The notes under the pieces are model-generated. The model was not told the DNA's origin. It worked only from the letters and a program-made list of their open reading frames with translations, and did no database searches. From Alphaproteobacteria bacterium (GTDB lineage: Bacteria > Pseudomonadota > Alphaproteobacteria > RF32 > CAG-239), in contig JBKEEF010000012.1 of NCBI GenBank assembly GCA_047975765.1, positions 84,824 to 148,823 on the forward strand: a stretch of 64,000 nucleotides of DNA. The letters are read 5' to 3'. Position 1 is the first letter of the stretch. Every line of letters begins with the position of its first letter. A program made the position numbers and the translations under genes. Shown here piece by piece: positions 2,991 through 58,944 of this stretch.

Positions 2991-3662
2991 TTACACATCT
3001 GTTTTGAGGGAAATACCAAATTCCCTCAAAATTTGTATGAGTTCAGCGACATAAAATTTTTCATGATAATCAAAAAAACCGTCTGAGGTGGCAATTTTCA
3101 TTGCTTCTTTTACCAATTTTAAAGCCTCTTCTGGTGTTTTAGACTGAATATTATTCAATGCACCATAAAAATCTTCCTCACTTGGATTGAGCGTTGAAAT
3201 ATAGTTTCTGATATAACTTTCACTCAAAATCTTAGCTTCAGGTTTAAGTGCAATGATATAATCCTCTATTGCCTTGATTTTAATTGGAAGGAGTTTTCCG
3301 TCACAAGTTGCAATAAAACTCAAAATGATAATATCATCTTGAAACTCTTTAAGAGAACGAGGAATGTTTTTATTTTCTTCTTTTGTTTCAGGTTGTTTCT
3401 CTGATTGACTATGTATAAATTCTTCAATCACTTCATGTGCATTTGCATAAATCTTATTGCTGTTTAGATTTGAAATGGAGCGAATATAAAACATATCCAA
3501 AACTTGAGATTTTTTTTTGGAATAGATATATAAATCAAAAAATGTAGATTCACCTTTTTTCCAGATATTTTTGATTGCAGCTTCTTCAATATGCATTCTG
3601 CCATTATCCAGAAAGCTAACTTTCATATTATAAAAAGGAAGGTCGGAATATTTCTGATTCAT
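2991..3662 (-). CDS. hypothetical protein with C-terminal TerB-like (tellurite-resistance TerB / DjlA-N-like) domain
   Basis: 223 aa. The C-terminal half (ILSFIATCDGKLLPIKIKAIEDYI ... KEAMKIATSDGFFDYHEKFYVAELIQIL) matches the TerB-fold pattern. The N-terminal half is unrecognised. Confidence 0.45.
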   Translation of the reverse strand: MNQKYSDLPFYNMKVSFLDNGRMHIEEAAIKNIWKKGESTFFDLYIYSKKKSQVLDMFYIRSISNLNSNKIYANAHEVIEEFIHSQSEKQPETKEENKNIPRSLKEFQDDIIILSFIATCDGKLLPIKIKAIEDYIIALKPEAKILSESYIRNYISTLNPSEEDFYGALNNIQSKTPEEALKLVKEAMKIATSDGFFDYHEKFYVAELIQILREFGISLKTDV

Positions 3663-24469: not shown

Positions 24470-24823
24470 ATGAAACAGTTTATTAAAATCAACGATGAAA
24501 AAAGCAAAGCCTCTTTTCACAAGTTCTCTAAAAACAATGAAGAAAAAGTTTTGTTAAAAACCGTTCTTGATGCGTTTTTTTTGGGTGAAAACATTGCTTA
24601 TATTGATGCTGATGAAGACATAAAATCAAATTTTAAAGTCATCACAAATTTTGTTGAAAAGAAAGGATGCATTGTGAATGTTTTTCCTGTCTATTTTGAG
24701 GAAAATGAAATTGGAGCTGTTGTTTTTGAGAAAAGCAAATGTCTGCTTGTTGGGAAAGATCAGCTTTCCAACTTTCGTCGAACATATGCAAGCCAGTGTA
24801 AGGCCTTTGACTGGGTAATCTAG
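24470..24823 (+). CDS. hypothetical protein (117 aa)
   Basis: ORF only. No recognisable motif. Confidence 0.45.
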   Translation: MKQFIKINDEKSKASFHKFSKNNEEKVLLKTVLDAFFLGENIAYIDADEDIKSNFKVITNFVEKKGCIVNVFPVYFEENEIGAVVFEKSKCLLVGKDQLSNFRRTYASQCKAFDWVI

Positions 24824-24888
24824 TTTTTATTTATTCAAAAAAACACCCGCATTTTTACAAATGCTGGTGTTTTTTTGTGTGAGATAGT

Positions 24889-28764: not shown

Positions 28765-29199
28765 ATGAGTTTACACGAAAAAATGAATCGCTACCTAGCG
28801 AATCAACAAGTATCTTACATTAAGTTGCACAATCTTCATTGGTACGTTGAAGGTTCTTCTTTCTTCACACTCCACCCAAAATTGGAAGAGCTTTATGACC
28901 AAACAGCTGAAATCATTGACGAAGTTGCAGAAAGACTTTTGGCAATGGGCCACAAACCAGTTGCAAGTTTCAAAGAAGCTTTAGCTTTGGCAACGATTAA
29001 AGAATTGGAAAGCAAGCCAATTTCTGGAAAAGACGTTTTGAGTAACCTTGAAAAAGATGTTGATTGGTGGGTTAAAGACACTAAGGAGCTTATTGCTTTA
29101 GCTGAAAAAGAAGGTGATGTTGTTTCCGCAGATATTTTCACAGGATATCTCAAAGAATATGAAAAATTGAACTGGATGCTCAAAGCTTATTCTAAATAG
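28765..29199 (+). CDS. dps: Dps (DNA-binding ferritin-like protein)
   Basis: 144 aa. KLHNLHWYVEGSSFFTLHPKLEELYDQ...DEVAERLLAMG ferroxidase-site pattern. Confidence 0.8.
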   Translation: MSLHEKMNRYLANQQVSYIKLHNLHWYVEGSSFFTLHPKLEELYDQTAEIIDEVAERLLAMGHKPVASFKEALALATIKELESKPISGKDVLSNLEKDVDWWVKDTKELIALAEKEGDVVSADIFTGYLKEYEKLNWMLKAYSK

Positions 29200-29214
29200 T
29201 TCCCCAAGAACAAA

Positions 29215-29248
29215 AATAAAACCTCCTAAACAGGAGGTTTTATTTTTA
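29215..29248. terminator. bidirectional rho-independent terminator
   Basis: AAAACCTCCTaaaCAGGAGGTTTTatttttat. Confidence 0.7.
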
Positions 29249-38634: not shown

Positions 38635-39714
38635 TCAACGTCCGCCGTTTCTGCCTTTTCCAAATTTTATAAAGCTTGGCTGAACATATTTTTGCGCAGG
38701 TTCGTGAGCCTTTGTCTTTTTAAAGATTGCCATATCTTCTTTCATTTCTTCTCTATGGCTAACATAAATTTCGCTCACATCAACAACACCTAGTCTTGGA
38801 TGCACCATAAACAATGTTTGGCTTGGATATTCAGCTTCCAATTTCAAGTCTCTGGCATACTGATTATAACCAGGCATATTCGAATTGACAATAGTATGTT
38901 CTAGTTTCAAATGTCTATGGAAATGCCCCATCAAAACCCAATCAATATATTTACCTTCCTGTGCATATTTCTGACGTGTTTTATATTGCCCTTTTGCAAT
39001 TGTTGCACTTACACCAATGAAACCTGTTCCGCCTTTTGCTCCTATTCTGTCACCATGAATTGCTAAGAAATTTGTTCCATAAACTGGGAAGAAAGCTTCC
39101 CCTGATTTTGGAGTTAGAAAACTGACATTCTTTGCTTTTTCAAAATGTTTTTCAATGAACATTGTTGAAATTGAATCATAACTTGTTTCAACAAAATTTT
39201 TAGATTCCGGTTTTTTGGTTGTTCTTCCATGATTTCCAGGAACAGAGACTATCCAAACATTTTTGAACTCTTTGCGAAAAGTTTCAATCATTCTGCATTC
39301 CTGCTTAGCACATTCAACGGCTGCTGCAATTGGACCCAGAGCATTTGTCTTATCTAGCTCATTATGAATGTCTCCTGAAACAGTATCTCCCAGACGGCAG
39401 ATGACAATTCCAGGTGCTTTTTTGCCTCCCTTACCACGAAGTTTGAGAATTGTATTATTCGTTAAACGCTCAATTCTCTTATTCGCAACTTCAACATTGC
39501 AATTGACACCATCTATTTCAACAGGGTCCACAACTTCGCCATAGTGAATATCACTTGTGAGCAAGACAGGAATATTTGGCAACCCAGTCACAAGAGCTTC
39601 ATCTTGTCCAACTTCTGACCATTCTGGAAGGTTGAACGGCTCCTCGCTCAAATGAAAGATTTCTTCTCTCAAGTTTTGTGCATGGTATAGTTCATCGTGA
39701 ACATCCTGCAACAT
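38635..39714 (-). CDS. calcineurin-like metallophosphoesterase. True start probably the ATG at 39868, lost by a 1-nt frameshift in an A8 run
   Basis: Motifs SDIHYGE (DxH), GDTVSGD (GDxxD), GNHG, HGD, GHFHRH (GHxH). The in-frame ATG at 39714 has no SD. An ATG at 39868 has an AAGAGGA SD but is +1 out of frame across the A8 run at 39854-39861. Confidence 0.7.
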   Translation of the reverse strand: MLQDVHDELYHAQNLREEIFHLSEEPFNLPEWSEVGQDEALVTGLPNIPVLLTSDIHYGEVVDPVEIDGVNCNVEVANKRIERLTNNTILKLRGKGGKKAPGIVICRLGDTVSGDIHNELDKTNALGPIAAAVECAKQECRMIETFRKEFKNVWIVSVPGNHGRTTKKPESKNFVETSYDSISTMFIEKHFEKAKNVSFLTPKSGEAFFPVYGTNFLAIHGDRIGAKGGTGFIGVSATIAKGQYKTRQKYAQEGKYIDWVLMGHFHRHLKLEHTIVNSNMPGYNQYARDLKLEAEYPSQTLFMVHPRLGVVDVSEIYVSHREEMKEDMAIFKKTKAHEPAQKYVQPSFIKFGKGRNGGR

Positions 39715-39991
39715 TTGTGCATAGTGTTTGATTTTGTTTTCATATACTTTTTTTTCGCTAGCTCCTAGTCCTATTTTTCCATCATATTTTGCTAGCTCAT
39801 CTTTTAATTTTTCTCTTAGTTTATCCTCTTTTGCTTCGACATCGCTAACTTTCTTTTTTTTCGCTCATTTTTATTTTCCTCTTGATACAAATTCAAATTA
39901 AAAAAAATCGCGAATAATATTTCATCAATAGTATATCAAGTGGCAAATCCGGATTGTCACTTCAAGGTTATAAAAATTTTCAAAATAATCA

Positions 39992-40030
39992 TGAAAAAAG
40001 GCTACTGAATTTTCAGTAGCCTTAAAAAAC
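39992..40030 (-). terminator. terminator-like hairpin with T-run on the minus strand
   Basis: Minus strand: AGGCTACTGAAaatTCAGTAGCCttttttt. Confidence 0.45.
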
Positions 40031-40294
40031 TTAAAAAAGTTCCTTATCTAATCTCTTACCGTCTTGTATGATACATAATTTTTTCATTATATGTTCCCTA
40101 ACAGTTACAACTAAATCTATATCAATTTTTATATAGTTTAAATATTTTATTTATTTTTTTACACAGGCAAAAAAGATGCCCCGATACATGAAAAAATCGG
40201 GACATCCATTTAAGGAACTATAATAATTTTGGCAGTTTTACTAAAAATGCACATGACAACATTTTTAAAAAACTCTCGAACATCCAAATTTTTT

Positions 40295-40520
40295 ATTCAA
40301 AAAAAACCCACCAATATCAAGAGGCGGGCGGATGTTCGAAAACCGTATAAAGCTGGACGGCTCGGCTTATTTGGCAAAGCCTTATTCACCGACATCCGCC
40401 CATAAAGACAGAAATCGGCAACTTTTTTTAGGTCGCATGCACAACGACCAGCCTTATTTTAAGGGTTTTCGAAGCCCTGAGCAGAAAAACACTCTGCCTA
40501 GCTGGAAGCATATTTGAATT
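40295..40520 (-). ncRNA. candidate structured small RNA or GC-rich palindromic repeat cluster ending in a rho-independent terminator (identity unknown)
   Basis: Local GC well above the surrounding non-coding DNA. Several stems (GGGCGGAUGU/ACAUCCGCCC, GGUCG/CGACC, CCAGC/GCUGG). Minus-strand terminator CCCGCC-loop-GGUGGG followed by U8 at about 40295-40325. Confidence 0.3.
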
Positions 40521-40676
40521 TCACCTATTTTACAAGCACTTATTTATATATTTCATTTCTTGTGTGCTTTCTTAAAAAGTTGCGATAATTCATCATAACC
40601 CAAAGCTATCCTTCTATGGTATCTAGCAAAGAGAGTTAGTTATTTTGAATATACTACCTAAAAGAATATATACCTA

Positions 40677-43022
40677 TTAGTCTATAAGTTTGATCTTTAT
40701 AATAGATTTTGCACTACGCCCAAGATTGTCGGTCGCTATAATTTCAATTTCACCAACTTCTGTTTTCATTTCTAATGTTTCTTCTGCTTTGCTACTTCCA
40801 ATAAGCTTTCCATTAGCATACCAAAAAAGCGTGGTCGCATCTGAATCCATACTTCCTTTAAGAATAATTTTTTCGTCAGCCAATTGATGAGAACGGACAA
40901 TATAGGTGCTTTCATTGGTTGGATATTGAATGATAGGAGGCTTTCCCTGATTGAAGATACCAATTTCATCACAGTCTTCAAGAAAATCTGGCGGTCCTTT
41001 TTTGCTAATACCTGCCTGTTCATAAATTTTCAAAACATTTGAAGGCCAGAAATTATAAGTTTCCATTCTAGTCGTTGGTGGAGTGTGTTTACACGCTCTT
41101 TTGCCTGTGGCAATATCCACAGGAATTTGCCTTGTGATATTTGAGAGCTTTATACTTGTGACACCAGAAATGAAATATGACTTTTTAGTGTTTTTGCAAT
41201 TTCCATTATCTATATCTCCCGTTTCTGTACAAACATCAACTTTAGAGAGCTTTAAACCATAAGGCTTAATATCTTCTAGTTTTTGAGTTTTTCCAAGCAT
41301 TCTAACAATTCTAAAGAACAATGGAGCAGCAGCTGTTCTGCCCACAAAATGATTATTCGAAGTGCTGTCAAAATTTCCAACCCAAACCACAATCACATAA
41401 TCTCCAGCAATACCTGCTGTCCAAGCATCTTTATAACCATAAGAAGTTCCAGTTTTCCAATAAACTAAATATTCTTTGGCTCTTGCCTTAGCAAACTGCA
41501 CTTTAACTCTGTCTGGTTCAGGTGCTTTTGAAAGCATATCTAGCGTCATAAAAGAAGCCTCAGAAGAAAGAAGTTGTTGTGGTTCGCAGGTCGGACTACC
41601 TTTCACAAAATTCAAATCACAACTTTTTCCCAAATTTGCTAAAGTAGAAAAGGTTTTAGCAATATCTAATGGGGAAAGCTCAAAAGCACCAAGTGCCAAT
41701 CCAAGCCCATAATAATCAGGACTTTTCATATTTTGAACACCACTTTTTTGCAAAAACTTATAAAATGAATCTTTTTCAATTTGACTCATCAAATCAATAA
41801 CTGGTAAATTTCGACTCAAATTGAGTGCTGATGTTGCATTAACCAGACCAAGATATCCTCTATCGAAGTTTTCTGGCGTGTAAAAGCTATAGTTTTTAGG
41901 CACATCTTTGAGCATTGACATTGGATGAATGATACCTTGTTGCAAAGCCAGTGCGTAGATAAAAGGTTTCAATGTTGAACCTGGCGAACGATAAGCTCTA
42001 AGACCATCCACCTGCCCTTGTATTTGAGCATTCCAAAAATCCTTAGATCCAACATAAGCCAAAATTTCATTCGTTTTATGATTCATAATGACTGCTGCAG
42101 CATTATAAACTCCTTTGGTTTCGTTTTGTTCAACATATTTCACCAAAATTTCTTCAAGAGAATTTTGCAAACCTAAATCCAAAGTTGAAAAAATTTCTCC
42201 ATAATATTGATTTTGTAAATTTCTAACAAAATGAGGCGCAAAGCTTGGAATTTTCTTTTGGGCAAATAAAGGTAAATTGAGATTATTTTTCTCCTTGTCA
42301 CCAAACTTCAAAAACCATATTTCTTTCAACCTTGAAACAGCTTTCACAACTTCTTCAACGCCTTTTTTTCTACCTAAATTTCTTTTGCTAGGATTTTGTG
42401 GAATAACAGCTAATGACATTGATTGTTGCAAATTGAGGTTCTGAGCTCTTGTATCAAAATAGATAATGCTTGCGGCTCCAATTCCTTCAATATTTCCGCC
42501 ATAAGGAGCTAAATTAAAATAAGCTTCAAGAATATCTTTTTTAGAATAGAACATTTCAATTTGAACCGCTCTCAAAATTTGTTCAATTTTTCCAAAAATG
42601 GTGGTGCTATCAATATGATAAACAATTCTTGCAAGTTGCATAGTAATTGTTGAAGCCCCTTGAACACGGCTTCCTTTCGCCATATCAAAAACAGCTCTGA
42701 AAATACTTAAAGGATTAAATCCTGCATGAGCATAAAACCAATTATCCTCATAAAGAATCAATGCGTTCTGTAAATCTGCGGGGATTTCTTCGATTGGAAC
42801 AAAGAGACGATATTTATCGTCTAGACTTAAGCCAATTTTTAAAAGCTTATTATTTCGATCATAAACAGCAGAAGAATAGCTATATTTTTCAAGAAGTCGA
42901 GGCTTAGGAAGAACAATGTATAGCAATGCAAAACCCATTGCTATACATAGAACTATCCTAAAAAACTTATTCTTGAACAGTGAAAGTGCTTGCTTTCGTA
43001 TTCGCTCTAACATCTGTGTCAT
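40677..43022 (-). CDS. pbpC: penicillin-binding protein 1C (transglycosylase plus transpeptidase, PbpC)
   Basis: 781 aa. GT51 motifs EDNWFYAHAGFNP and GASTITMQLAR. Transpeptidase SxxK (SPGSTLKP), KTG (WKTGTSYG). C-terminal PbpC-specific domain. Overlaps the A2M gene by 56 nt. Confidence 0.9.
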   Translation of the reverse strand: MTQMLERIRKQALSLFKNKFFRIVLCIAMGFALLYIVLPKPRLLEKYSYSSAVYDRNNKLLKIGLSLDDKYRLFVPIEEIPADLQNALILYEDNWFYAHAGFNPLSIFRAVFDMAKGSRVQGASTITMQLARIVYHIDSTTIFGKIEQILRAVQIEMFYSKKDILEAYFNLAPYGGNIEGIGAASIIYFDTRAQNLNLQQSMSLAVIPQNPSKRNLGRKKGVEEVVKAVSRLKEIWFLKFGDKEKNNLNLPLFAQKKIPSFAPHFVRNLQNQYYGEIFSTLDLGLQNSLEEILVKYVEQNETKGVYNAAAVIMNHKTNEILAYVGSKDFWNAQIQGQVDGLRAYRSPGSTLKPFIYALALQQGIIHPMSMLKDVPKNYSFYTPENFDRGYLGLVNATSALNLSRNLPVIDLMSQIEKDSFYKFLQKSGVQNMKSPDYYGLGLALGAFELSPLDIAKTFSTLANLGKSCDLNFVKGSPTCEPQQLLSSEASFMTLDMLSKAPEPDRVKVQFAKARAKEYLVYWKTGTSYGYKDAWTAGIAGDYVIVVWVGNFDSTSNNHFVGRTAAAPLFFRIVRMLGKTQKLEDIKPYGLKLSKVDVCTETGDIDNGNCKNTKKSYFISGVTSIKLSNITRQIPVDIATGKRACKHTPPTTRMETYNFWPSNVLKIYEQAGISKKGPPDFLEDCDEIGIFNQGKPPIIQYPTNESTYIVRSHQLADEKIILKGSMDSDATTLFWYANGKLIGSSKAEETLEMKTEVGEIEIIATDNLGRSAKSIIKIKLID

Positions 43023-46000
43023 ATAATGCCTCTACATAAGTCGCCGGTGCAACAAATTTTCCTTTTGCAATGACTTTAACATTATATGTTGCTTCACTCA
43101 TTTCGCTTGAAGCTGTCACATAGATTAAAGCTCTGTCTTCTCTCTCTTCTTTATAGTCAAGTGAAGCATTGGTTTCAATAGAGCCACTTTCAATTTCAAA
43201 GCATCCTGGCATCAAATCAACAATTGCCACATCGTTAATATAATCTCTGCCACCTGTTGCTTTGAATCTGATGCGAACAGTTAACTTGTCACCAACATTT
43301 GCTTTAGAAACAGCTGAGCCTTTCTCATTGATATATTCTTTGGTCACTTCAATGAAATTACTTGCTGCTTTTTGAGCACTTTCTTTAGCAAAACCTTGTT
43401 CTTCAATCACATAGAAGAAAGGATTTGGAGAAATTGCTTCAAATGTTTTGTCTTCACTAGAAAGCTCTGTTCTTGCAAAAGTTTTATATGTTGAAGATTT
43501 TCCAACAAAATCAATTTTTTTATCTGCTTTTTTATCAAACTTATAATTGCTCAATGCTAATAGTGAGAAAGCTGCTGAATTTGTATTATATCTTTGTTCT
43601 TTAAGCGGTTTCAACAAAGTTTTCACAGCTGTTGCATCAATTTCAGCCAAATCTTCAGGGAAATATTTAGACATCAAATCAATATACATTGCATTTGTTG
43701 TATCTCCGTTGTCTTTGAACTTATATGCTCCGATTAAGCCTCGTGCTTTTGGTTCATTTTTCAACATTTGATAACTTGCTGCCATGTATGTTGCACTGAT
43801 TTTAGATTTCCAGTCATCTTTAGAACTCACTGCAAATTTGAGCGCATCTTTCCAATTATCACCTTTTGGTTTGTTCAACTCTTCATAATATTTCTCAATA
43901 TTAATCAAATAGTTTGTTGTAACTTCACCATTTTTAGTGAGAAGATAAATTGCATAAGCAACTTTTGTATCTCCCAAACCATTAGGATCTCTTCCTGCAA
44001 CTGATTTTGCATAAGTGATTGACTTATTCAAAAGTGAATTCGGAACATTAAAGCCTTTGTTTTTAGCAAACAACATAAAGTCTAGTGCATAAAGAGAAGC
44101 ATATTCATCAACTGAAGACCAACTTCCGCTCCAAGCTGAGAAACCACCATTAGACTTTTGACGTTCCATCAATTTTGAGATGGTATCATCATACAAAGCA
44201 TAGACATCAATCCCCTTAACCAATTCTGGATATTTGAAGAAAATGTCCATAGTTGGATAAATTTTACTGATAGTTTGCTCTGTGCAAGCATGAGGGAACT
44301 TATCCAAGAATGCAATAAGACCTTCGCTCAACACAAGTGGAGAAGTTGAAGCAATTGCTTCTTGATTGCGATATTCCTCAAACATTGGTGTCACAAAGTT
44401 TTTCAATTTCAATTTTGAAGGCTCATATCCCATCATAAGTTTTGTGATATATGGACTAGATGGTCTGACTCCAATATGATATGGCATTTCAAAGTTCTTG
44501 GACGCATCACTCACTGCCTCAACCTTGTATGTAAGTGTTGATGAACCAAGCTGTTCTAGTGCCTTGATTTGGTATTTCACACTTTTTTCACCATTTTCAT
44601 CAATTCTAAGGGTCTGAACTTTTTCACCAGCAACTTCAAGCCCACCTTCAATATCCAAAGTTACTTTAACTTCATAACCTTTACCTGAATTTTCAACCAA
44701 GTTAGCAATACTCACGCCCACTTCAAATTCATCTTTAGGTGAAACATTAAATGGACCACTTGGAACCAAAGCAAAATCTCCACGAATATAAGTCGATTTC
44801 TGAGCACTTCCCATAGCTTCTTCGGAAACAGCAACCGCCATCACACGAATTTGACCATTGAAGATTGCTGGAACCTTATATTTATATTCCTGAACATCTG
44901 TGGATGTATCGATAACTCCACTCCAGAAAGCCACAACTTCATTCTGCTTTCTAGCGAATGGATTTTGCTGAGCCAAGAGTTCATCTGCTGAATATTCATC
45001 ATCACCACCCGTTGCCTTATAAAGTTGTAGTAACTTCATATCTGGCATAATCAAATCCATAATTTGAGAACTTGAAACACGTAAAGCCTTTTTCTTGATG
45101 AACTCTGACAAAGGATCTGGTGTTTGATATTTTGCCACCTGCAAAATGCCTTCATTCACACCATAGACAATGATTTTTCCTGCCTTTGCAGTCTTATATT
45201 TAACAACCAATTCATCTCCTGGTTTGACAACTTCAGGAACATCAAGCTCAATTTTGATGTCTCTTTTGTCCTTATTAATTTCAAAAGGAACAACGGAATA
45301 TGCCAAAGGAGACATAAAGATTTCTCTTGAATTTGCATCTCTGACAAAAGCTACATTGATATAAGCATTTCCTTCAACAGTATAAGGTAAGCGAATTTCT
45401 TCTGTTGTTGTTTTGCTTGATGTCTTAAACCATTTATAGCTATATACTTCATCTCTTTCAATTGTAATCAAGCCATAACCTTCGTATGGAGCAACAATTT
45501 TCATCGAAATCATATCGCCATTATTATATTGTTTTTTATCTAAAGTAACTTTCAAGTTTGCGTCTTTATCAAGCATAAAGTCTGTGTTTCCACCACCTGC
45601 AATATCATAGGAGACTTTTGAAAGCACAACACCTTCCTTATCTGCAATTTCAACATAAAACTTACCAGATGTTTTTGTGTCAATCACATAGTTATTGCCT
45701 GTTGCAGGAATAGAAATTTTGCTTGTATTCAATACATCTTCTTTTTCAATTTGCATATATTTATAAGTTCCGTTTGGCATTTCGACCAAGCTTGGAACAT
45801 ATTTAATTTGAACCAATTTCAAAGATAAATCTTCTTTGGCAATTTTATTCAAATTGTTATCAATCGCAATAAAATTGATGCTTCTTTCAGCATTTTTAGA
45901 AATATTATATAAAGCTCCATCTCCCTTATATCCAACAATATAAGTTGCTGGAGAAACAAGAGCCGATTCAGATGTATAAACGCTACGTCCACCTTCAAGT

Positions 46001-48642
46001 TCAAAGCCTTCAACATTTAGTGTAAAATTATATGTTCCACGAGAAAACTTATCCAAATCCACTTTGAATTCTGTTTTTCCTTCTTTATCTGTTGTTTGCT
46101 CAGAAAGAACCTCATTATAATATCTTGTTGCACCAGAAATTTTTGGATCTTTGAAATTATATCCTTTAAATTCTTGGAAAGAAAAACTTGCTGGATACAA
46201 ATTGAAGTTTGCCTTTACATTATGGTCAATAGAAGGGTTTCCATAAAGGTTTTGTAACAATACATTACCTTTAATTTCTTTTTCAATGTACCAACCTTTT
46301 TTCTTAACACCTTCAAGTGCTAATTTGATTTTCATTGTATCTGGCTGAAATTCTTCAACTCTGAAACTCACATCTGTAAGATAGTTTTTGTAGCTTCCAC
46401 TCACATCATGAACGGTCAAGCGATAATCGCCAATTTTTGCTGATGCAGGAATTTTATATTCATAATCAGCAAAGCCAAACTCGTCTGTGATAATTTTTTT
46501 GGAAGCAACCTCATCTCCTTGAGAGTTCATCACACTCACAGATAGAGGGAATTTCTTTGGTGCTAAAAGATCAACATTTCGAAGCATAACACCAAATGAA
46601 GCTTTTTCATTAGGTCTGTAAATTCCACGATCTGAAAAACCATAGGCTTTCATTTCTTTTTTATTGGTACTGTCATAAACACCACCGACATCAAACGTAG
46701 ATAAATCAAGTTTTCTATCACCTCTATTCACAGGCATAAAAGAAATATCACTTCCCTTAGTCACAACATAAACTGTTGGAGATTTCTCTGCTCTAAAATC
46801 ATCAAAATTTGGAATTTTTGCCATTCCTGCAGAATTTGTATAAGCAGTTAAAATAGCCACACCATTTTTGCCAAGCACTTCAACTTTTGCATCAGCAACA
46901 GGGCGTCCTTCAGAAAAACTTGAAATGAAGACATCATGAGATTTGTTCAAATTATCTTTGACCATAATTGCTAAATCTGTAATCACAATCAGTCTTCTAT
47001 CTTCTGATGTATTATAAGAATTTTGATAATTTCCTCTCACTTTAACAATGAATGTTCCACGTTTAGACTTGAAATATTCATTCAAGTTAACTGAAGAATA
47101 ATCTTGTTTTGCAGGATGTTGCGTATTGATTGTGAGTTTTTTTCTAAAGATTTCAGAAATATTTTCTTCTGTAAAATTATAATTTCTGAAATATGGATTG
47201 GTAAAATCACCTGATGTTTGACTAATAAGGTGATTCAAATCATTGCTTTCAATTCTTGCTACTTCAACATTAATTGTGTCAATTCCTTGTGAAGAAAGCG
47301 TCAAAGTCTTATCACCATTCAATGAAAGGATTGAACCTTGAAAAGCAATGCTCGCTTCCATTGGATAGTTTGAAGAACTTGTCATTCTTATCTGATCATC
47401 TGAGAAAATAAATCCATCAACAGAGCCTAACCCTTTTTTGATATATGTGATGACACAAGCATTTCTTTTCGGAATATCATATTTAAACATATGAACCTTA
47501 CCAGCTTCTGTTGCCAAAGGAACAACATCAAGAGATGTTACACCAGCCACACTAGATGGTAGACCAGCTTTCTTGACCTTAGATTCAATTTTACTGCAAT
47601 AGTCATTATATTGGTAGAAATTTACATATTGTGAAAATTCTTTTGGATCAACAGATGTTGAAAAACTAACAAATAAAACTTGCTCTGGCTCATTATTTTT
47701 TAGTTCGTTTCTAATAATTTGACTTGAAACCGAATTGAGCTTGAAGAAAGTTGATGAACTTGGAATTTTCACTTTTACTTTCACACTGTCTTTGATTTTT
47801 TCTTGATTATATGCATTTTTAACACCAGAAAGCATAATTTCTGCAAAATCTTCGTCTTTTTTAATTTTTACAGGAGAAGATAAAACATGAAGTTTGCTAT
47901 TATTGTTTTCTAGTTTGTAAGTGAAGTCATATTTATCTCCACTATGTGTTTTGATTGAGATACTATCTTTGACAGATTCAACATCGACAGGATAGTTGAA
48001 ACTGAATGTTGCAACAACTTGTTTGATTTTAACATCACGAGGATCTTCATAAAATTCTGAACTTTGTGATCTTGCTACGAAGTTTGGAGAACTGAAAGAA
48101 AATTCTTTAGCACCTTTTTTAACTTCAACATTTGGACTGAAAATATCATCGCTCAATGAGACAGAATATTTTGTGTTAGGAATCCAATCTTTCTCAGGAG
48201 TAAAAGCCAAATTCCTATCGTCAATCCAACGCCATTCACCACGAATATCAGGAAAGATTGTCGCCCCTTGTGATACAACATTATAAACAAGTTCTGATTT
48301 TGCAACGGAATATGGAAAAGAAATTTTTACAAAGTTTGGAGTGACTTTTGAAGATGAGATATATGAATTATCAGGTTCTCTTACATAACCATAATCAATG
48401 ACTGTTTTTTCAGCTGTTTCTGAAACCATATAGGCTTTTGGAGAAAGGAGATAATAAACAATTCCTGTGATCGCTACAACCAAAAAGATAAAAATCGACA
48501 AGATTTTCTTTTTGTGGTTCAAGAAAATTCCCTTAAAATCGGATTTAAAGAAATGAACTAAATTAACTTTAGAAAATAACATACTAAAAAATGTTTTAAT
48601 CTTATTTGTAGAAACAGGTTTACTCATCAGAATCTTCTCCAT
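42967..48642 (-). CDS. alpha-2-macroglobulin family protein (YfhM-like), membrane-anchored
   Basis: 1891 aa. N-terminal TM anchor. Intact thioester motif CTEQ (PHACTEQTISKIYP). Conserved genomic pairing with pbpC. Confidence 0.9.
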   Translation of the reverse strand: MEKILMSKPVSTNKIKTFFSMLFSKVNLVHFFKSDFKGIFLNHKKKILSIFIFLVVAITGIVYYLLSPKAYMVSETAEKTVIDYGYVREPDNSYISSSKVTPNFVKISFPYSVAKSELVYNVVSQGATIFPDIRGEWRWIDDRNLAFTPEKDWIPNTKYSVSLSDDIFSPNVEVKKGAKEFSFSSPNFVARSQSSEFYEDPRDVKIKQVVATFSFNYPVDVESVKDSISIKTHSGDKYDFTYKLENNNSKLHVLSSPVKIKKDEDFAEIMLSGVKNAYNQEKIKDSVKVKVKIPSSSTFFKLNSVSSQIIRNELKNNEPEQVLFVSFSTSVDPKEFSQYVNFYQYNDYCSKIESKVKKAGLPSSVAGVTSLDVVPLATEAGKVHMFKYDIPKRNACVITYIKKGLGSVDGFIFSDDQIRMTSSSNYPMEASIAFQGSILSLNGDKTLTLSSQGIDTINVEVARIESNDLNHLISQTSGDFTNPYFRNYNFTEENISEIFRKKLTINTQHPAKQDYSSVNLNEYFKSKRGTFIVKVRGNYQNSYNTSEDRRLIVITDLAIMVKDNLNKSHDVFISSFSEGRPVADAKVEVLGKNGVAILTAYTNSAGMAKIPNFDDFRAEKSPTVYVVTKGSDISFMPVNRGDRKLDLSTFDVGGVYDSTNKKEMKAYGFSDRGIYRPNEKASFGVMLRNVDLLAPKKFPLSVSVMNSQGDEVASKKIITDEFGFADYEYKIPASAKIGDYRLTVHDVSGSYKNYLTDVSFRVEEFQPDTMKIKLALEGVKKKGWYIEKEIKGNVLLQNLYGNPSIDHNVKANFNLYPASFSFQEFKGYNFKDPKISGATRYYNEVLSEQTTDKEGKTEFKVDLDKFSRGTYNFTLNVEGFELEGGRSVYTSESALVSPATYIVGYKGDGALYNISKNAERSINFIAIDNNLNKIAKEDLSLKLVQIKYVPSLVEMPNGTYKYMQIEKEDVLNTSKISIPATGNNYVIDTKTSGKFYVEIADKEGVVLSKVSYDIAGGGNTDFMLDKDANLKVTLDKKQYNNGDMISMKIVAPYEGYGLITIERDEVYSYKWFKTSSKTTTEEIRLPYTVEGNAYINVAFVRDANSREIFMSPLAYSVVPFEINKDKRDIKIELDVPEVVKPGDELVVKYKTAKAGKIIVYGVNEGILQVAKYQTPDPLSEFIKKKALRVSSSQIMDLIMPDMKLLQLYKATGGDDEYSADELLAQQNPFARKQNEVVAFWSGVIDTSTDVQEYKYKVPAIFNGQIRVMAVAVSEEAMGSAQKSTYIRGDFALVPSGPFNVSPKDEFEVGVSIANLVENSGKGYEVKVTLDIEGGLEVAGEKVQTLRIDENGEKSVKYQIKALEQLGSSTLTYKVEAVSDASKNFEMPYHIGVRPSSPYITKLMMGYEPSKLKLKNFVTPMFEEYRNQEAIASTSPLVLSEGLIAFLDKFPHACTEQTISKIYPTMDIFFKYPELVKGIDVYALYDDTISKLMERQKSNGGFSAWSGSWSSVDEYASLYALDFMLFAKNKGFNVPNSLLNKSITYAKSVAGRDPNGLGDTKVAYAIYLLTKNGEVTTNYLINIEKYYEELNKPKGDNWKDALKFAVSSKDDWKSKISATYMAASYQMLKNEPKARGLIGAYKFKDNGDTTNAMYIDLMSKYFPEDLAEIDATAVKTLLKPLKEQRYNTNSAAFSLLALSNYKFDKKADKKIDFVGKSSTYKTFARTELSSEDKTFEAISPNPFFYVIEEQGFAKESAQKAASNFIEVTKEYINEKGSAVSKANVGDKLTVRIRFKATGGRDYINDVAIVDLMPGCFEIESGSIETNASLDYKEEREDRALIYVTASSEMSEATYNVKVIAKGKFVAPATYVEALYDTDVRANTKASTFTVQE

Positions 48643-57777: not shown

Positions 57778-58312
57778 GCTAAATCTTCCCGAGATTGTGG
57801 AAACAAAAGACTGCGTTGCTGTTCGCAGAATTCATAAATATAACAAAGAAATGTTTGAAGCCGTTGATAAAAACAGAAATTTCTTAAGAGAATATCTCTT
57901 TTGGGTAGATGGCACAAACGCACTTGAAGATGTGGAGAAAACAACAGATTTTTTCATATCTCAATGGGATGAAGGTATAAATTATGCCTATATCATCACA
58001 GATAAAAATGACAAACTTTTAGGAATGATTGACCTTCATGCTGTAGATTATAAAAATAGAAATGCAGAATTTGGATATTGGCTAAGCCAAAATGTAAATG
58101 GGAAAGGCTATATCAGTCAGATTTTACAAGCTTTAGAAAAGCTGGCTTTTGAACAAGGTTTAGTCAGAATTTATATTCGTTGCGATGTTGCAAACACATC
58201 TTCAAATAATGTATGCATTAGAAATGGATATGAATTTGAAGGTTGCATGAAAAAACTTCTAAATACTTATGGTGAATTTCACGACTGCAATATTTATGCA
58301 AAAACAATCTAA
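57767..58312 (+). CDS. GNAT-family N-acetyltransferase (RimJ/RimL-like)
   Basis: Start ATG 57767 with an AAGGAG SD, 11 nt overlap with the upstream GNAT. NAEFGYWLSQNVNGKGYISQIL is the GNAT core. Confidence 0.7.
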   Translation: MLDKLNLPEIVETKDCVAVRRIHKYNKEMFEAVDKNRNFLREYLFWVDGTNALEDVEKTTDFFISQWDEGINYAYIITDKNDKLLGMIDLHAVDYKNRNAEFGYWLSQNVNGKGYISQILQALEKLAFEQGLVRIYIRCDVANTSSNNVCIRNGYEFEGCMKKLLNTYGEFHDCNIYAKTI

Positions 58313-58341
58313 AAAAAGCCCCGATTTCTCGGGGCTTTTTG
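58313..58341. terminator. bidirectional terminator
   Basis: aaaaaaAGCCCCGAtttcTCGGGGCTttttt. Confidence 0.7.
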
Positions 58342-58944
58342 TTATTTCTTTGGAGCCACTTTTTTTGCAGCTGTCTTCTTTGGGGCTGCTTTTTTCTTTG
58401 TGACTTTTTTTGCTTTTGGCTCAGTGTAAGTTTTAGAAATTGTCAAAGCATTTTCCAAATCTTTTTCATTACAAAGACCAACAGCAACTGGATTTTTCGG
58501 ACGAAGATAATTCATATCTCTATATGTACCATTGCGAATTGTTTCGATTGTTGGTTTTGTTGTTCCAATCAATTTGCAAATTTGAGAGTCAATGATTTGT
58601 GGATAGTTCTTAACAACCCACAAAATTGCTGCAGGTTTGTCTGCTCTTTGTGAAGGAGAAAGAACTTTTTTAGATTTTGCATTTTTCGCTTTAACATTTC
58701 TTTCCAAAAGGGAAGCTTCCAAATTTGTTCTTGGGTCTGCTTCACATCTTTTGATTTCTTCCAAGCTCAATTGACCGTTCATCACTGGGCTAATACCAAC
58801 GATATTATAAGCAACGTCGCCATCAGCAATCGCTTGAATTTCAAGTTCATGAAGTTCGCAAAAAACGGCAATTTGTCTAAATGTCAAAGTTGTGTTTTCA
58901 ACCAACCAAACCGCTGTTGCTTTTGGCATCAATGGTGCTGTCAT
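58342..58944 (-). CDS. DUF1013-like conserved protein with Lys/Ala-rich histone-H1-like C-terminal tail
   Basis: 200 aa. N-terminal MPKATAVWLVENTTLTFRQIAVFCELHELEIQAIADG resembles the alphaproteobacterial DUF1013 family. C-terminal KKVTKKKAAPKKTAAKKVAPKK. Confidence 0.55.
   Translation of the reverse strand: MTAPLMPKATAVWLVENTTLTFRQIAVFCELHELEIQAIADGDVAYNIVGISPVMNGQLSLEEIKRCEADPRTNLEASLLERNVKAKNAKSKKVLSPSQRADKPAAILWVVKNYPQIIDSQICKLIGTTKPTIETIRNGTYRDMNYLRPKNPVAVGLCNEKDLENALTISKTYTEPKAKKVTKKKAAPKKTAAKKVAPKK

Follow-up and report, generated by a model that had tools for sequence, protein, structure and literature searches.

A candidate bistable leader RNA related to sRNA-Xcc1 that precedes surface-protein genes in gut Alphaproteobacteria, with an orphan copy downstream of pbpC

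Leader RNAs in which a terminator competes with an anti-terminator include the pbuE adenine riboswitch, an ON switch, and the c-di-GMP-I (GEMM) riboswitches, which occur in multiple copies before pilus and adhesin genes. Processive antitermination RNAs such as put of phage HK022 and EAR of Bacillus are also structured leaders with terminators downstream of them, and their operons encode surface or secreted products. REP elements and Rickettsia RPE are imperfect palindromes of ~20-40 nt (RPE ~100 nt) that are highly repeated and have no fixed relation to gene starts. The RNA closest to the one described here, sRNA-Xcc1 (RF02221), was first found in an integron cassette of Xanthomonas campestris. 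In Xcc 8004 it is a discrete 88-nt RNA, as determined by Northern blots and end mapping (PMC2996969). Classical sRNA-Xcc1 is located just 5' of same-strand symE (bioRxiv 10.1101/2025.06.18.660453), and in the APSE phage just 5' of a same-strand ORF6N protein gene.

We analysed a stretch of 64 kb from an alphaproteobacterial contig (the window), for which a GC-rich island packed with hairpins had been predicted between pbpC and a phosphoesterase gene. The base composition agreed with this prediction at 40300-40499 (GC 0.465 versus 0.25-0.28 in flanking intergenic DNA) but not at 40170-40300 (25% GC); the GC-rich part is limited to ~220 bp (40300-40520), and its minus strand carries the RNA. All three minus-strand hairpins with T-runs were found, at 40328..40307 (followed by U8; −12.0 kcal/mol), 40206..40175 (U6; −18.8 kcal/mol) and 40023..39998 (U6; −16.8 kcal/mol). 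The sequence also contains the long-range 10-bp helix GGGCGGATGT (40326-40335)/ACATCCGCCC (40392-40401), the competing 10-bp complement TCGAACATCC (40276-40285)/GGATGTTCGA (40330-40339), which is backed as a genuine alternative pairing, and the recurrent motif, as ACATCC at 40202, 40280 and 40392 and as GGATGT at 40330. The hairpins do not form a loose cluster but belong to a single ~205-nt minus-strand RNA (~40505..40299), beyond which two more terminators lie.

The prediction of a structured non-coding RNA on the minus strand, ending at a terminator near 40300, was supported. Minus-strand RNA from 40530..40290 folds at −82.9 kcal/mol, compared with −62.2±4.2 kcal/mol in shuffles (z −4.96; 0 of 200 shuffles equal), and the z-score of the plus-strand fold at the same locus is only −2.7. 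RNA structure and not coding accounts for the GC composition, as proposed: the 61-aa ORF has no Pfam match and is not conserved in homologous copies. Candidate genes of 61 aa and 58 aa were rejected on these two grounds. Three minus-strand terminators do lie downstream of pbpC and the plus-strand ORF 40332..40517 does exist, but it is highly improbable that the region is simply a set of tandem pbpC terminators, or that this ORF is a real gene, given that the same RNA was found at ~100 loci without pbpC, that an antisense ORF of at least 60 aa is present in 1 of 160 homologous copies and that the covariation pattern described below fits RNA, not codons.

We interpret 40505..40299 of the minus strand as a ~205-nt bistable, switch-like 5' leader with a promoter-like site and a terminator, present here as an orphan copy (probability roughly 0.65; Table 1). 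A sigma-70 promoter before the leader is weakly indicated: the −35 region AAGTGCTTG is kept in a syntenic locus (L050), and in the family as a whole the best sigma-70-like sites concentrate 0-11 nt ahead of hairpin H1, weakly above shuffles (7.0 versus 6.0 of 12). The 5' hairpin H1 itself has a mean energy of −7.0 kcal/mol in 134 copies, compared with −2.2 kcal/mol in shuffles, and 84% are at or below −5 kcal/mol. The last 3 nt of the segment that we call the hub are shared with the terminator stem.

Table 1. Parts of the leader RNA and neighbouring features in the window (positions in the 64-kb stretch)
Feature	Position	Strand	Remarks
Whole leader RNA, ~205 nt	40299..40505	-	Presumed start from promoter-like site; end at end of U-run
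Promoter-like site	40507..40535	-	−35 TTGTAA 40535..40530; 17-nt spacer; −10 TATGCT 40512..40507; putative, from sequence
H1, 5' hairpin, variable sequence (GGCAGAG..UUCUGCU)	40480..40498	-	
AGGGCU and segment a (UCGAAAACC)	40464..40478	-	Partner a'
Segment b (AUAAGGCUGG), variable	40448..40457	-	Partner b'
H2 hairpin (GGUCGU..GCGACC)	40431..40449	-	
Segments c and d (UUGCCGAU, UCUGUCU)	40406..40421	-	Hairpin with 40401..40387, sequestering P1 5' strand
GGGCGGAUGUCGGUG	40387..40401	-	Either Xcc1-type P1 5' strand (40401..40392) or 3' strand of c/d hairpin; Rfam alignment
H3 hairpin (AAGGCUUUGCC..AAUAAGCC) and GAGCCGU (5' strand of Rfam hairpin 4)	40357..40383	-	
Segment b' (CCAGCUUUAU)	40347..40356	-	'Loop' of Rfam hairpin 4; partner b
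Hub GGUUUUCGAACAUCCGCCC	40326..40344	-	a' 40344..40336; anti-SD ACAUCC 40335..40330; P1 3' strand 40335..40326
Intrinsic terminator: CCCGCC, 10-nt loop, GGUGGG, U8	40299..40328	-	−12.0 kcal/mol
SD-like box GGAUGUUCGA	40276..40285	-	Complementary to 40339..40330
17-mer UAUUAUAGUUCCUUAAA, then second terminator	40170..40225	-	17-mer 40225..40209; terminator 40206..40175 and U6

Using Rfam 15, with E limits of 10 for 39500-41000 and of 0.5 for the full 64 kb, sRNA-Xcc1 was the only family that overlapped the element, and no riboswitch, 6S RNA, tmRNA, RNase P or other Rfam family matched there. The overlapping sRNA-Xcc1 match was sub-threshold, with 39.0 bits against a gathering score of 53 (E 6.4×10−5 over 1.5 kb, 2.7×10−3 over 64 kb), and the other family copies tested gave 37-40 bits for RF02221 or no match. 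The covariance model was matched over its full length (positions 1-87), and the family shares with sRNA-Xcc1 the junction ACGGUUUUCGAAC (GGUUUUCGA as conserved junction), AAUA motifs and GCCGU; all helices of the sRNA-Xcc1 core, a closing P1 that encloses two hairpins, can form in it. A bona fide sRNA-Xcc1 member (L055; 73 bits for RF02221), which has an ORF6N-like ORF ~40 nt downstream, was matched by the HMM of our family. In its 3' half the family is homologous to the three-way-junction RNA sRNA-Xcc1, though diverged from it. The 5' half adds a domain, the segments a, b, c and d of which are complementary to strands of the Xcc1-type core.

The family differs from sRNA-Xcc1 by this extra ~110-nt domain (H1, a, b, H2, c, d), by a hairpin-4 loop that is enlarged to 10-11 nt and paired with segment b, by a P1 that is imperfect in most copies, and by the predicted size of the transcript (~205 nt versus 88 nt). 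It is chromosomal and multi-copy in low-GC gut Alphaproteobacteria, and the genes behind its leaders encode envelope proteins, whereas sRNA-Xcc1 is found on integrons, phages and plasmids of beta- and gammaproteobacteria. Unlike sRNA-Xcc1 with its carriage on integron cassettes, transposons, plasmids or prophages, the window copy lies between pbpC and a phosphoesterase-like gene, in synteny with L050. A plasmid collection yielded no match to the element, and IMG/VR no exact match of one 20-mer. A phage-borne origin by way of the single 'phage' hit, MT836653, was considered and rejected; this is an unverified 9-kb contig, and the compared stretches are identical to MAG contigs. Our literature search retrieved no account of this leader family, nor of a cis role for sRNA-Xcc1.

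Homologous copies were gathered with fixed-word patterns, by which the segments AGCCGT, TACGGTTTTCGAAC and AAATAAGCCGAGCCGT are fixed; the invariance of GAGCCGU carries no weight because the word is contained in both search patterns. The scan of genome contigs produced 106 stretches, ~100 of them true copies and nearly all in MAGs of gut Alphaproteobacteria, with up to 5-6 leader copies per assembly. More than 120 further stretches came from gut metagenomes, and the two scans together comprise ~155 unique copies. The unit consists of a promoter-like site, ~200 nt of RNA and an intrinsic terminator, and is consistently oriented toward a downstream gene; in ~85 of 100 loci, a same-strand ORF starts 41-64 nt past the conserved ACAUCC. 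The downstream products form 23 sequence clusters and include autotransporter (PF03797), OMP_b-brl/Opacity, PEGA lipoprotein and phage-tail-collar proteins, as well as prepilin-like products that carry GRSMIEMLGVLAI. These data demonstrate that the element belongs to a large family of structured leader RNAs, present in multiple copies in gut Alphaproteobacteria and with a fixed position before genes for exported or surface proteins. The original prediction that the RNA travels with the 3' end of pbpC did not hold, as most of the 100-odd homologues are at unrelated loci, typically with a promoter-like site just upstream, and pbpC adjoins the element at only one other locus, L050. An exact-protein look-up of pbpC gave no match.

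Another predicted identity was a cluster of REP/RPE-like selfish palindromic repeats in an AT-rich genome, with no dedicated RNA function. Like REP/BIME and Rickettsia RPE, the family is dispersed, multi-copy, hairpin-forming intergenic DNA that is GC-richer than its surroundings, with copies spread over related genomes. However, blastn-short, motif counts and nhmmer with the family HMM found no second copy within the 64-kb window, and we therefore dropped the idea. The units are ~200 nt and not 20-40 nt long, they keep a fixed orientation and distance to the downstream ORF, and they come with a promoter-like site, a terminator and an SD box. In helices b and H1 the sequence varies freely but pairing is retained, G-U pairs are strand-specific, and neither terminal repeats nor target duplications were seen in the copies examined. 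The REP/RPE reading is thus already contradicted, and we give it next to no weight. The opposition of dispersed copies to a dedicated ncRNA, which had been set as the rule for refuting the prediction, does not apply to an element that is both multi-copy and strongly covarying.

An alignment of 97 copies (A2) showed that the leader is conserved over its full length, and RNAalifold recovered the long fold from the family alignment. The homologues covary strongly in this long-range fold: 95.8% of its cells are paired, compared with 88.5% in shuffles, the cells with changes on both sides number 387 versus 119 (0 of 500 shuffles reach 387), and the covariation score is 0.270 versus 0.126 in shuffles and at most 0.055 when the partners are slid. 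The a/a' pairs (66-74:228-236) are 99% paired; among the 155 unique copies the combinations are CGA/UCG (122), CAG/CUG (21), AGC/GCU (1) and AGU/ACU (1), with ~6 mismatched. In b/b' (columns 85-91:217-224) all four Watson-Crick pair types occur, and each of four pairs is changed on both sides in 58-69 of 97 copies and unpaired in at most two. H2 has both sides changed in four of its five pairs, with 99% of cells paired. Compensatory variants of the c/d hairpin were found in L084 (AUUUGU/ACAAGU) and L022 (UUCGCUU/GAGCGGA), and the second copy of L101 has the pair A135-U171. The terminator pairs 246:268 (CG 90, UA 7) and 247:267 (GC 55, GU 27, AU 15) covary as well, and a U-run follows the terminator stem in every aligned copy. 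G-U pairs are abundant (at 129:178 and 144:167, and at 63:240 in all 97 copies), which identifies the minus strand of the window as the transcribed strand. We conclude that the long fold and the terminator are genuine features of the family.

A second state, in which P1 and the Xcc1-type fold would form, is supported by a handful of variants. The 19-nt hub has four possible partners, namely a 5' segment of the leader, the P1 5' strand, the terminator and the region around the Shine-Dalgarno sequence of the gene behind the leader. L101 has a second copy in which column 171 has gone from G to U and the two columns that pair with it have changed as well, to A135 in the c/d hairpin and to A238 in P1. 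A short form in L107 has the P1 pair G167:C242 replaced by A:U, and a change of column 246 from C to U is accompanied by A268 in the terminator and by A or G at column 163 in P1. Columns 171, 246 and 233-235 change jointly with partners from two different helices. Such simultaneous compensation in two partners, seen in rare variants, fits a bistable attenuator, in which mutually exclusive helices are each under selection; for the second fold, this selection is visible in few sequences. P1 is a perfect 10 bp in the window, and 95.3% of cells in the P1/core helices of the family are paired. These helices are nearly invariant, partly through the way in which copies were collected, and compensatory events are few (171:238, 167:242 and 163:246). 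At P1 pair 165:244, ~65-70% of copies carry an A.C mismatch (64 of the 97 in A2, 108 of the 155 unique copies), and three copies (L084, L030 and L040) break P1 pairs yet keep the c/d hairpin. The energies computed for the window were −78.7 kcal/mol for the long fold and −69.2 kcal/mol for the P1-forced fold. A gap of ~10 kcal/mol is large for a simple equilibrium switch.

In the family, the gene behind the leader has the box AGGAUGUUYGAA as its ribosome-binding site. Pairing of the hub with the 70 nt past the terminator reached −10.9 kcal/mol, compared with −4.8 kcal/mol in shuffles (z −3.7). With its own downstream region the hub paired at −8.3 kcal/mol, versus −4.0 kcal/mol with the starts of other ORFs from these loci, and pairing at −9 kcal/mol or lower was obtained with 40% of own regions but with 1.4% of other ORF starts (p 8×10−49). 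At the level of base complementarity, these comparisons demonstrate a match between leader and SD box. In the CAG/CUG subfamily, no general covariation of the SD box with a' was found, so that only the 8-9-bp core GAACAUCC/GGAUGUUC is supported; three-way covariation of a' and SD box is clear in a single case, the second copy of L101, and may also be present in that of L081.

Taken together, these data point to the following mechanism. In the long fold, the helices a/a' and b/b' and the pairing of c/d to the P1 5' strand would leave ACAUCC-GCCC free; the terminator could then form, ACAUCC could pair with the Shine-Dalgarno box, and the gene would be off. In the Xcc1 fold, P1 (GGGCGGAUGU/ACAUCCGCCC) would take three nucleotides from the terminator stem and hide the anti-SD, and the gene would be on. 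As the long fold is ~10 kcal/mol more stable, off would be the default state. The balance would be shifted by an effector, conceivably a ligand, a protein or a second RNA, or by the kinetics of co-transcriptional folding; the gene context of the family offered no ligand, protein partner or coherent metabolic theme that points to an effector. Start, termination and read-through of transcription in this scheme are presumed, and so are the switching of the RNA, the identity of its on state and its trigger.

The family resembles riboswitches and attenuators in being a 5' leader whose helices exclude each other, in having an intrinsic terminator in every copy and immediately before the regulated ORF, in SD occlusion, and, as with GEMM, in its many copies per genome before surface or adhesion genes. 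In contrast to riboswitches, the family matches no Rfam 15 riboswitch family in sequence or structure and has no known ligand; its alternative fold is an sRNA-Xcc1-like junction, and the difference in stability between the folds is unusually large. With put and EAR it shares the position of a structured leader upstream of terminators and the surface or secreted products, but covariance-model searches found no similarity. The terminator overlaps the structure itself in the leader, which argues for attenuation and not for modification of RNA polymerase. More tentatively, and at somewhat less than even odds, the family could represent a bistable riboregulator of a new class, perhaps even a riboswitch, which co-ordinates a whole set of surface genes (autotransporters, porin-like OMPs, lipoproteins and type IV pilin-like proteins) in uncultured gut Alphaproteobacteria, with the sRNA-Xcc1 family acting as a switch in cis.

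Alternatively, the element may be a gene for a trans-acting small RNA, the product being the ~205-nt terminated RNA, which might for example use ACAUCC/UUCGAAC as anti-SD on the AGGAUGUUYGAA boxes that surface-protein paralogues share; its adjacency to genes would be incidental or reflect dual use. The discrete 88-nt sRNA-Xcc1 on Northern blots (PMC2996969) is in line with this explanation, as are the strong terminator at the end of every copy and the window and L050 copies, which have no conserved ORF behind them and still keep their structure by compensatory changes. Since the SD box is common to all copies, pairing in trans is possible in principle. However, the fixed distance of 41-64 nt to a same-strand ORF in ~85% of copies leaves no space for a separate promoter, and the anti-SD segment UUUUCGA is buried in a/a' in the long fold. 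We consider a trans-acting gene unlikely; such an activity would also be compatible with the cis model.

The window copy of the proposed leader is an orphan, as decay has left only 21 codons of the ORF downstream of it (40283..40218, headed by the SD-like box). A conserved small peptide after this box was considered and discarded, because eight residues into it a frameshifting indel separates the window from L050. Here the copy is without a gene to regulate. It might be a non-functional relic, the slowly decaying 5' region of a deleted surface-protein gene. Besides the truncated ORF, which is shared with L050 for eight residues only, such a fate is suggested by orphan or tandem copies elsewhere that decay, such as the first copy of L150, in which a no longer matches a'. 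The comparison with L050, where pbpC is 72% identical in amino acids, gave a different picture. Counted by hand on the alignment of the two loci, the element is ~88% identical (96 of 100 in the core block), compared with 72.8% for the whole aligned locus. The H1 sequence is wholly different in L050 and the hairpin is retained; at the base of H2, the window has a G-C pair where L050 has A-U; and both loci have an intact P1, a/a', b/b' and terminator and an intact complementarity to the SD box. A relic is quite unlikely in view of these findings. By its pattern of substitutions, the orphan RNA is still under selection for structure and may therefore now act as a free-standing RNA.

For the window alone the result is modest, a single orphan copy with no gene behind it. 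The family has escaped annotation, as the Rfam gathering score misses every copy tested, yet numerous genes for surface proteins in a widespread, uncultured group of gut bacteria have it at their 5' ends. With its clear structure it poses a problem of the orphan-riboswitch type. If the two-state model holds, the leader provides a handle on the control of adhesins, pilins and outer-membrane proteins. If the broader proposal is true, sRNA-Xcc1, for 15 years annotated as a trans-acting sRNA of mobile elements, would be a cis leader, and the genes that it regulates would include symE toxins and ORF6N antirepressor-like proteins.

The 17-mer downstream of the leader is identical in L050, and the hairpin of the second terminator is kept there through compensatory changes. 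The segment 40170..40225 could be either the tail of a read-through transcript or the 3' end of a separate small RNA.

Part of the GC-rich, hairpin-dense island placed at 40170-40520 by the original prediction proved real: GC content was 0.465 at 40300-40499, compared with 0.25-0.28 in the adjoining intergenic DNA. The island is shorter than claimed, 40170-40300 being AT-rich. All the sequence features listed in that prediction were found in place, and each of the three minus-strand hairpins followed by a T-run has a genuine terminator-like structure (table). Minus-strand RNA (40530..40290) folded far better than shuffled sequences (z=−4.96; 0 of 200 shuffles as good), with z=−2.7 for the plus strand of the same stretch.

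A permissive scan against all 4227 Rfam families gave a single match in the island, sRNA-Xcc1 (RF02221; E=6.4e-5 in a 1.5-kb search, 2.7e-3 for the whole window), and no family matched the 110 nt upstream of it. In the Rfam alignment, the 10-bp long-range helix noticed earlier is P1, the closing helix of the sRNA-Xcc1 model.

We then collected relatives. Among phage records, blastn gave a single hit, 78% identical over 190 nt, in an unverified 9-kb contig from human faeces labelled 'Bacteriophage sp.'; this hit delimited the conserved unit. A pattern scan of one genome per species (GTDB) yielded 106 stretches with ~100 true copies, almost all in 'Alphaproteobacteria' MAGs from the guts of humans, ruminants, rabbit and mouse (Azospirillum sp. 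51_20 and Acetobacter sp. CAG:977 are among the record titles); CAVGVF01 holds six copies, CAKQLP01 and CALXTY01 five each. An independent pattern on metagenomes, predominantly human gut, added >120 stretches, giving 155 distinct copies after pooling and de-duplication. No second copy was found in the 64-kb window, and a REP-type element, one of the identities proposed, was rejected in classification.

From an alignment of 97 copies (A2), we read the unit as a promoter-like site (a weak call), a hairpin of variable sequence (H1), AGGGCGUCGAAAACCC (segment a), a variable segment b of 8-10 nt, hairpin H2, AUGCCGAYUUCUGUC (segments c and d), GGACGGAUGUCGG, hairpin H3, GAGCCGU, a variable segment b', ACGGUUUUCGAACAUCCGCCCGCC, and the remainder of the terminator hairpin with its U-run. 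A box AGGAUGUUYGAA with a start codon follows ~25 nt past the U-run, and in ~85 of 100 loci an ORF starts 41-64 nt after ACAUCC. The downstream products fall into 23 unrelated sequence clusters, almost all with signal peptides: autotransporters (PF03797; 26 copies), prepilin-like proteins (GRSMIEMLGVLAI; 25 copies), several clusters each of PEGA-type and other lipoproteins and of OMP beta-barrel/Opacity-type proteins, a phage-tail-collar protein (4 copies) and Cys-rich secreted proteins (3 copies). In JAGAZZ01 the leader precedes an autotransporter, a pilin-like protein and an OMP within one genome. The element is classed neither as a coding ORF nor merely as tandem terminators, an identity also offered, or the end of pbpC.

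RNAalifold and explicit pair counts agreed on one nested long fold: a/a', b/b', H2, the c/d hairpin, H3 and the terminator. Its cells were paired in 95.8% (88.5% in shuffles), 387 had changed on both sides (119 in shuffles; none of 500 reached 387), and the covariation score was 0.270, compared with 0.126 in shuffles and ≤0.055 with partners slid. H1 folds as a hairpin in 84% of the copies. The decisive element is helix b, where four positions each commonly carry any of the four Watson-Crick pairs and at most 2 of 97 copies are unpaired. Segment b' is modelled by Rfam as the loop of hairpin 4, and because a 10-bp helix is impossible inside this 11-nt closed loop, the two folds are mutually exclusive. 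Since a' belonged to the first search pattern, a/a' was checked on copies collected otherwise; among 155 copies the combinations were CGA/UCG (122), CAG/CUG (21), AGC/GCU (1) and AGU/ACU (1), with about six mismatched. Frequent G-U pairs, which on the opposite strand would read as A.C mismatches, identify the window's minus strand as the transcribed one.

Nearly all copies are able to adopt the Xcc1-type fold (P1, H3, H4), which is almost invariant, although the fixed search patterns imposed part of this invariance. Within P1, 64 of 97 copies carry an A.C mismatch at pair 165:244. Rare variants of three kinds modestly favour this second fold. In the second copy of L101, G171 is replaced by U, with both alternative partners altered (A135 in the c/d hairpin, A238 in P1); in the L107 short form, which lacks the 5' domain, one P1 pair changed from G:C to A:U; and a C-to-U change at column 246 is accompanied by A268 in the terminator plus A or G at P1 column 163. 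Three other loci (L084, L030, L040) have broken P1 pairs and keep c/d. We read these data as a dominant long fold and a weaker alternative still under selection, the evidence for the alternative being modest.

The hub, a 19-nt segment, can pair with segment a, the 5' strand of P1, the terminator 3' arm (via the hub's last 3 nt) or the box after the terminator; the last corresponds to the competing complement of the original prediction (40339..40330 with 40285..40276). Family-wide, hub pairing with the post-terminator region reached −10.9 kcal/mol (−4.8 in shuffles), in a duplex that spans the Shine-Dalgarno (SD) sequence and ends at the start codon. With start regions, the hub paired at −8.3 kcal/mol for 141 element-adjacent ORFs versus −4.0 for 1534 others from the same loci (p=8e-49). 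Minimum-energy folds of read-through transcripts retained a/a' in 70 of 80 copies, and in several of these 70 ACAUCC pairs with GGAUGU of the SD box.

We propose that the unit functions in the manner of a terminator/anti-terminator leader. The long fold would lock the 5' strand of P1 in the c/d hairpin, the terminator would form and ACAUCC could cover the SD, turning the gene off. Formation of P1 would instead take 3 nt from the ~6-bp terminator stem and hide ACAUCC, so that transcription would read through with the SD free. Off would be the default state, because the long fold of the window RNA is favoured by ~10 kcal/mol (−78.7 versus −69.2 kcal/mol); to switch, the RNA would require either an effector or kinetic control while it is being transcribed. 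We infer this on/off assignment as a model.

The leader scores below the Rfam cut-off, and its architecture, host and context are unlike those of sRNA-Xcc1; we do not file it under RF02221 and regard it as a diverged relative that carries an additional regulatory domain. Searchable literature yielded no description of this leader family. Classical sRNA-Xcc1, originally described as an 88-nt sRNA (PMC2996969), likewise sits just 5' of genes, for example symE (bioRxiv 10.1101/2025.06.18.660453) and ORF6N proteins (at L055 an ORF6N-like ORF begins ~40 nt downstream), so a cis role may hold for the family as a whole.

Tandem leader copies occur at L150 (130-330 and 400-600) and L107 (3177-3283, the short form, then a full copy at 3346-3580), and L084 has two ~1.8 kb apart; the first L150 copy lacks a following ORF, and its segment a has ceased to match a'. 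They recall the five tandem sRNA-Xcc1 copies, ~381 nt apart, in a Xylella genomic island (PMC12189769). The 'Bacteriophage sp.' record (MT836653.1, L001; 9264 bp) combines the leader with an 890-aa autotransporter, a pair of serine-recombinase-like ORFs and one tRNA. Over the stretches compared, the 130-nt core of its element is exact in MAG loci L077 and L014, as are the first 40 autotransporter residues in L014. The record resembles a contig of bacterial or mobile-element origin rather than a phage.

Coordinates of features in the window
Feature	Position	Strand	Details
Conserved unit	40488..40299	minus
sRNA-Xcc1 match	40401..40318	minus	model positions 1-87; 39 bits (gathering score 53)
Hub	40344..40326	minus	GGUUUUCGAACAUCCGCCC
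Terminator-like hairpin 1	40328..40307	minus	U8; −12.0 kcal/mol
Terminator-like hairpin 2	40206..40175	minus	U6; −18.8 kcal/mol
Terminator-like hairpin 3	40023..39998	minus	U6; −16.8 kcal/mol
17-mer	40225..40209	minus	UAUUAUAGUUCCUUAAA
18-codon ORF	~40030-40086	minus	MKKLCIIQDGKRLDKELF
359-aa ORF	38635..39714	minus	weak Metallophos match
Upstream ATG	39868..39866	minus
A8 run	39861..39854	minus
TAG	39847..39845	minus
pbpC	40677-43022	minus	Transgly, Transpeptidase, BiPBP_C (Pfam)
1891-aa ORF	42967-48642	minus
rimP leader match	58286-58366	plus	46.4 bits (cut-off 47)
Phe leader match	29175-29247	plus	32.7 bits, sub-threshold
Thr leader match	24815-24877	plus	27.7 bits, sub-threshold

The syntenic locus L050 (MAG JAQWBS01) is collinear with the window over 5.3 kb, with the element likewise behind pbpC (72% protein identity); the window itself belongs to the gut alphaproteobacterial group that holds the other copies. 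The window copy retains every helix, with a perfect P1, a terminator and an SD-like box; this box heads just a 21-codon ORF that is unconserved in L050. The element is ~88% identical between the two loci (own count on the alignment) versus 72.8% for the whole aligned locus. H1 differs in sequence but retains its hairpin, and at the base of H2 a G-C pair in the window is A-U in L050. On these sequence grounds, the window copy is an orphan whose structure remains under selection. It may act as a free-standing RNA, or its read-through product, predicted to end at the second terminator, may matter.

Directly before that terminator, whose stem survives via compensatory changes, lies the 17-mer, identical in both loci despite diverged surroundings; it contains UUCCUU, an anti-SD-like motif. 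Together they might supply the seed and 3' end of an independent small RNA. The 18-codon ORF, after an AGGGAAC box and ahead of the third terminator, aligns roughly at the start of a 191-aa lipoprotein gene of L050 (MKKIYLLAVSLFLSGC) and may be what is left of a lipoprotein gene that was deleted.

Downstream, the frame of the 359-aa ORF is open upstream to an ATG, yet interrupted: after the A8 run, the frame from this ATG meets TAG, and the long ORF carries on in another frame. A homopolymer frameshift could explain this, which would mean phase variation, a pseudogene or a sequencing error. The sub-threshold Rfam leader matches elsewhere in the window (rimP, Phe, Thr) are gammaproteobacterial, which is odd for a genome syntenic with an alphaproteobacterial MAG; the rimP-like match may be a real leader. 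An alpha-2-macroglobulin-type gene is the usual companion of pbpC, and the 1891-aa ORF, upstream on the same strand with a slight overlap, may be one by size and position (of the two, the Pfam scan covered pbpC).
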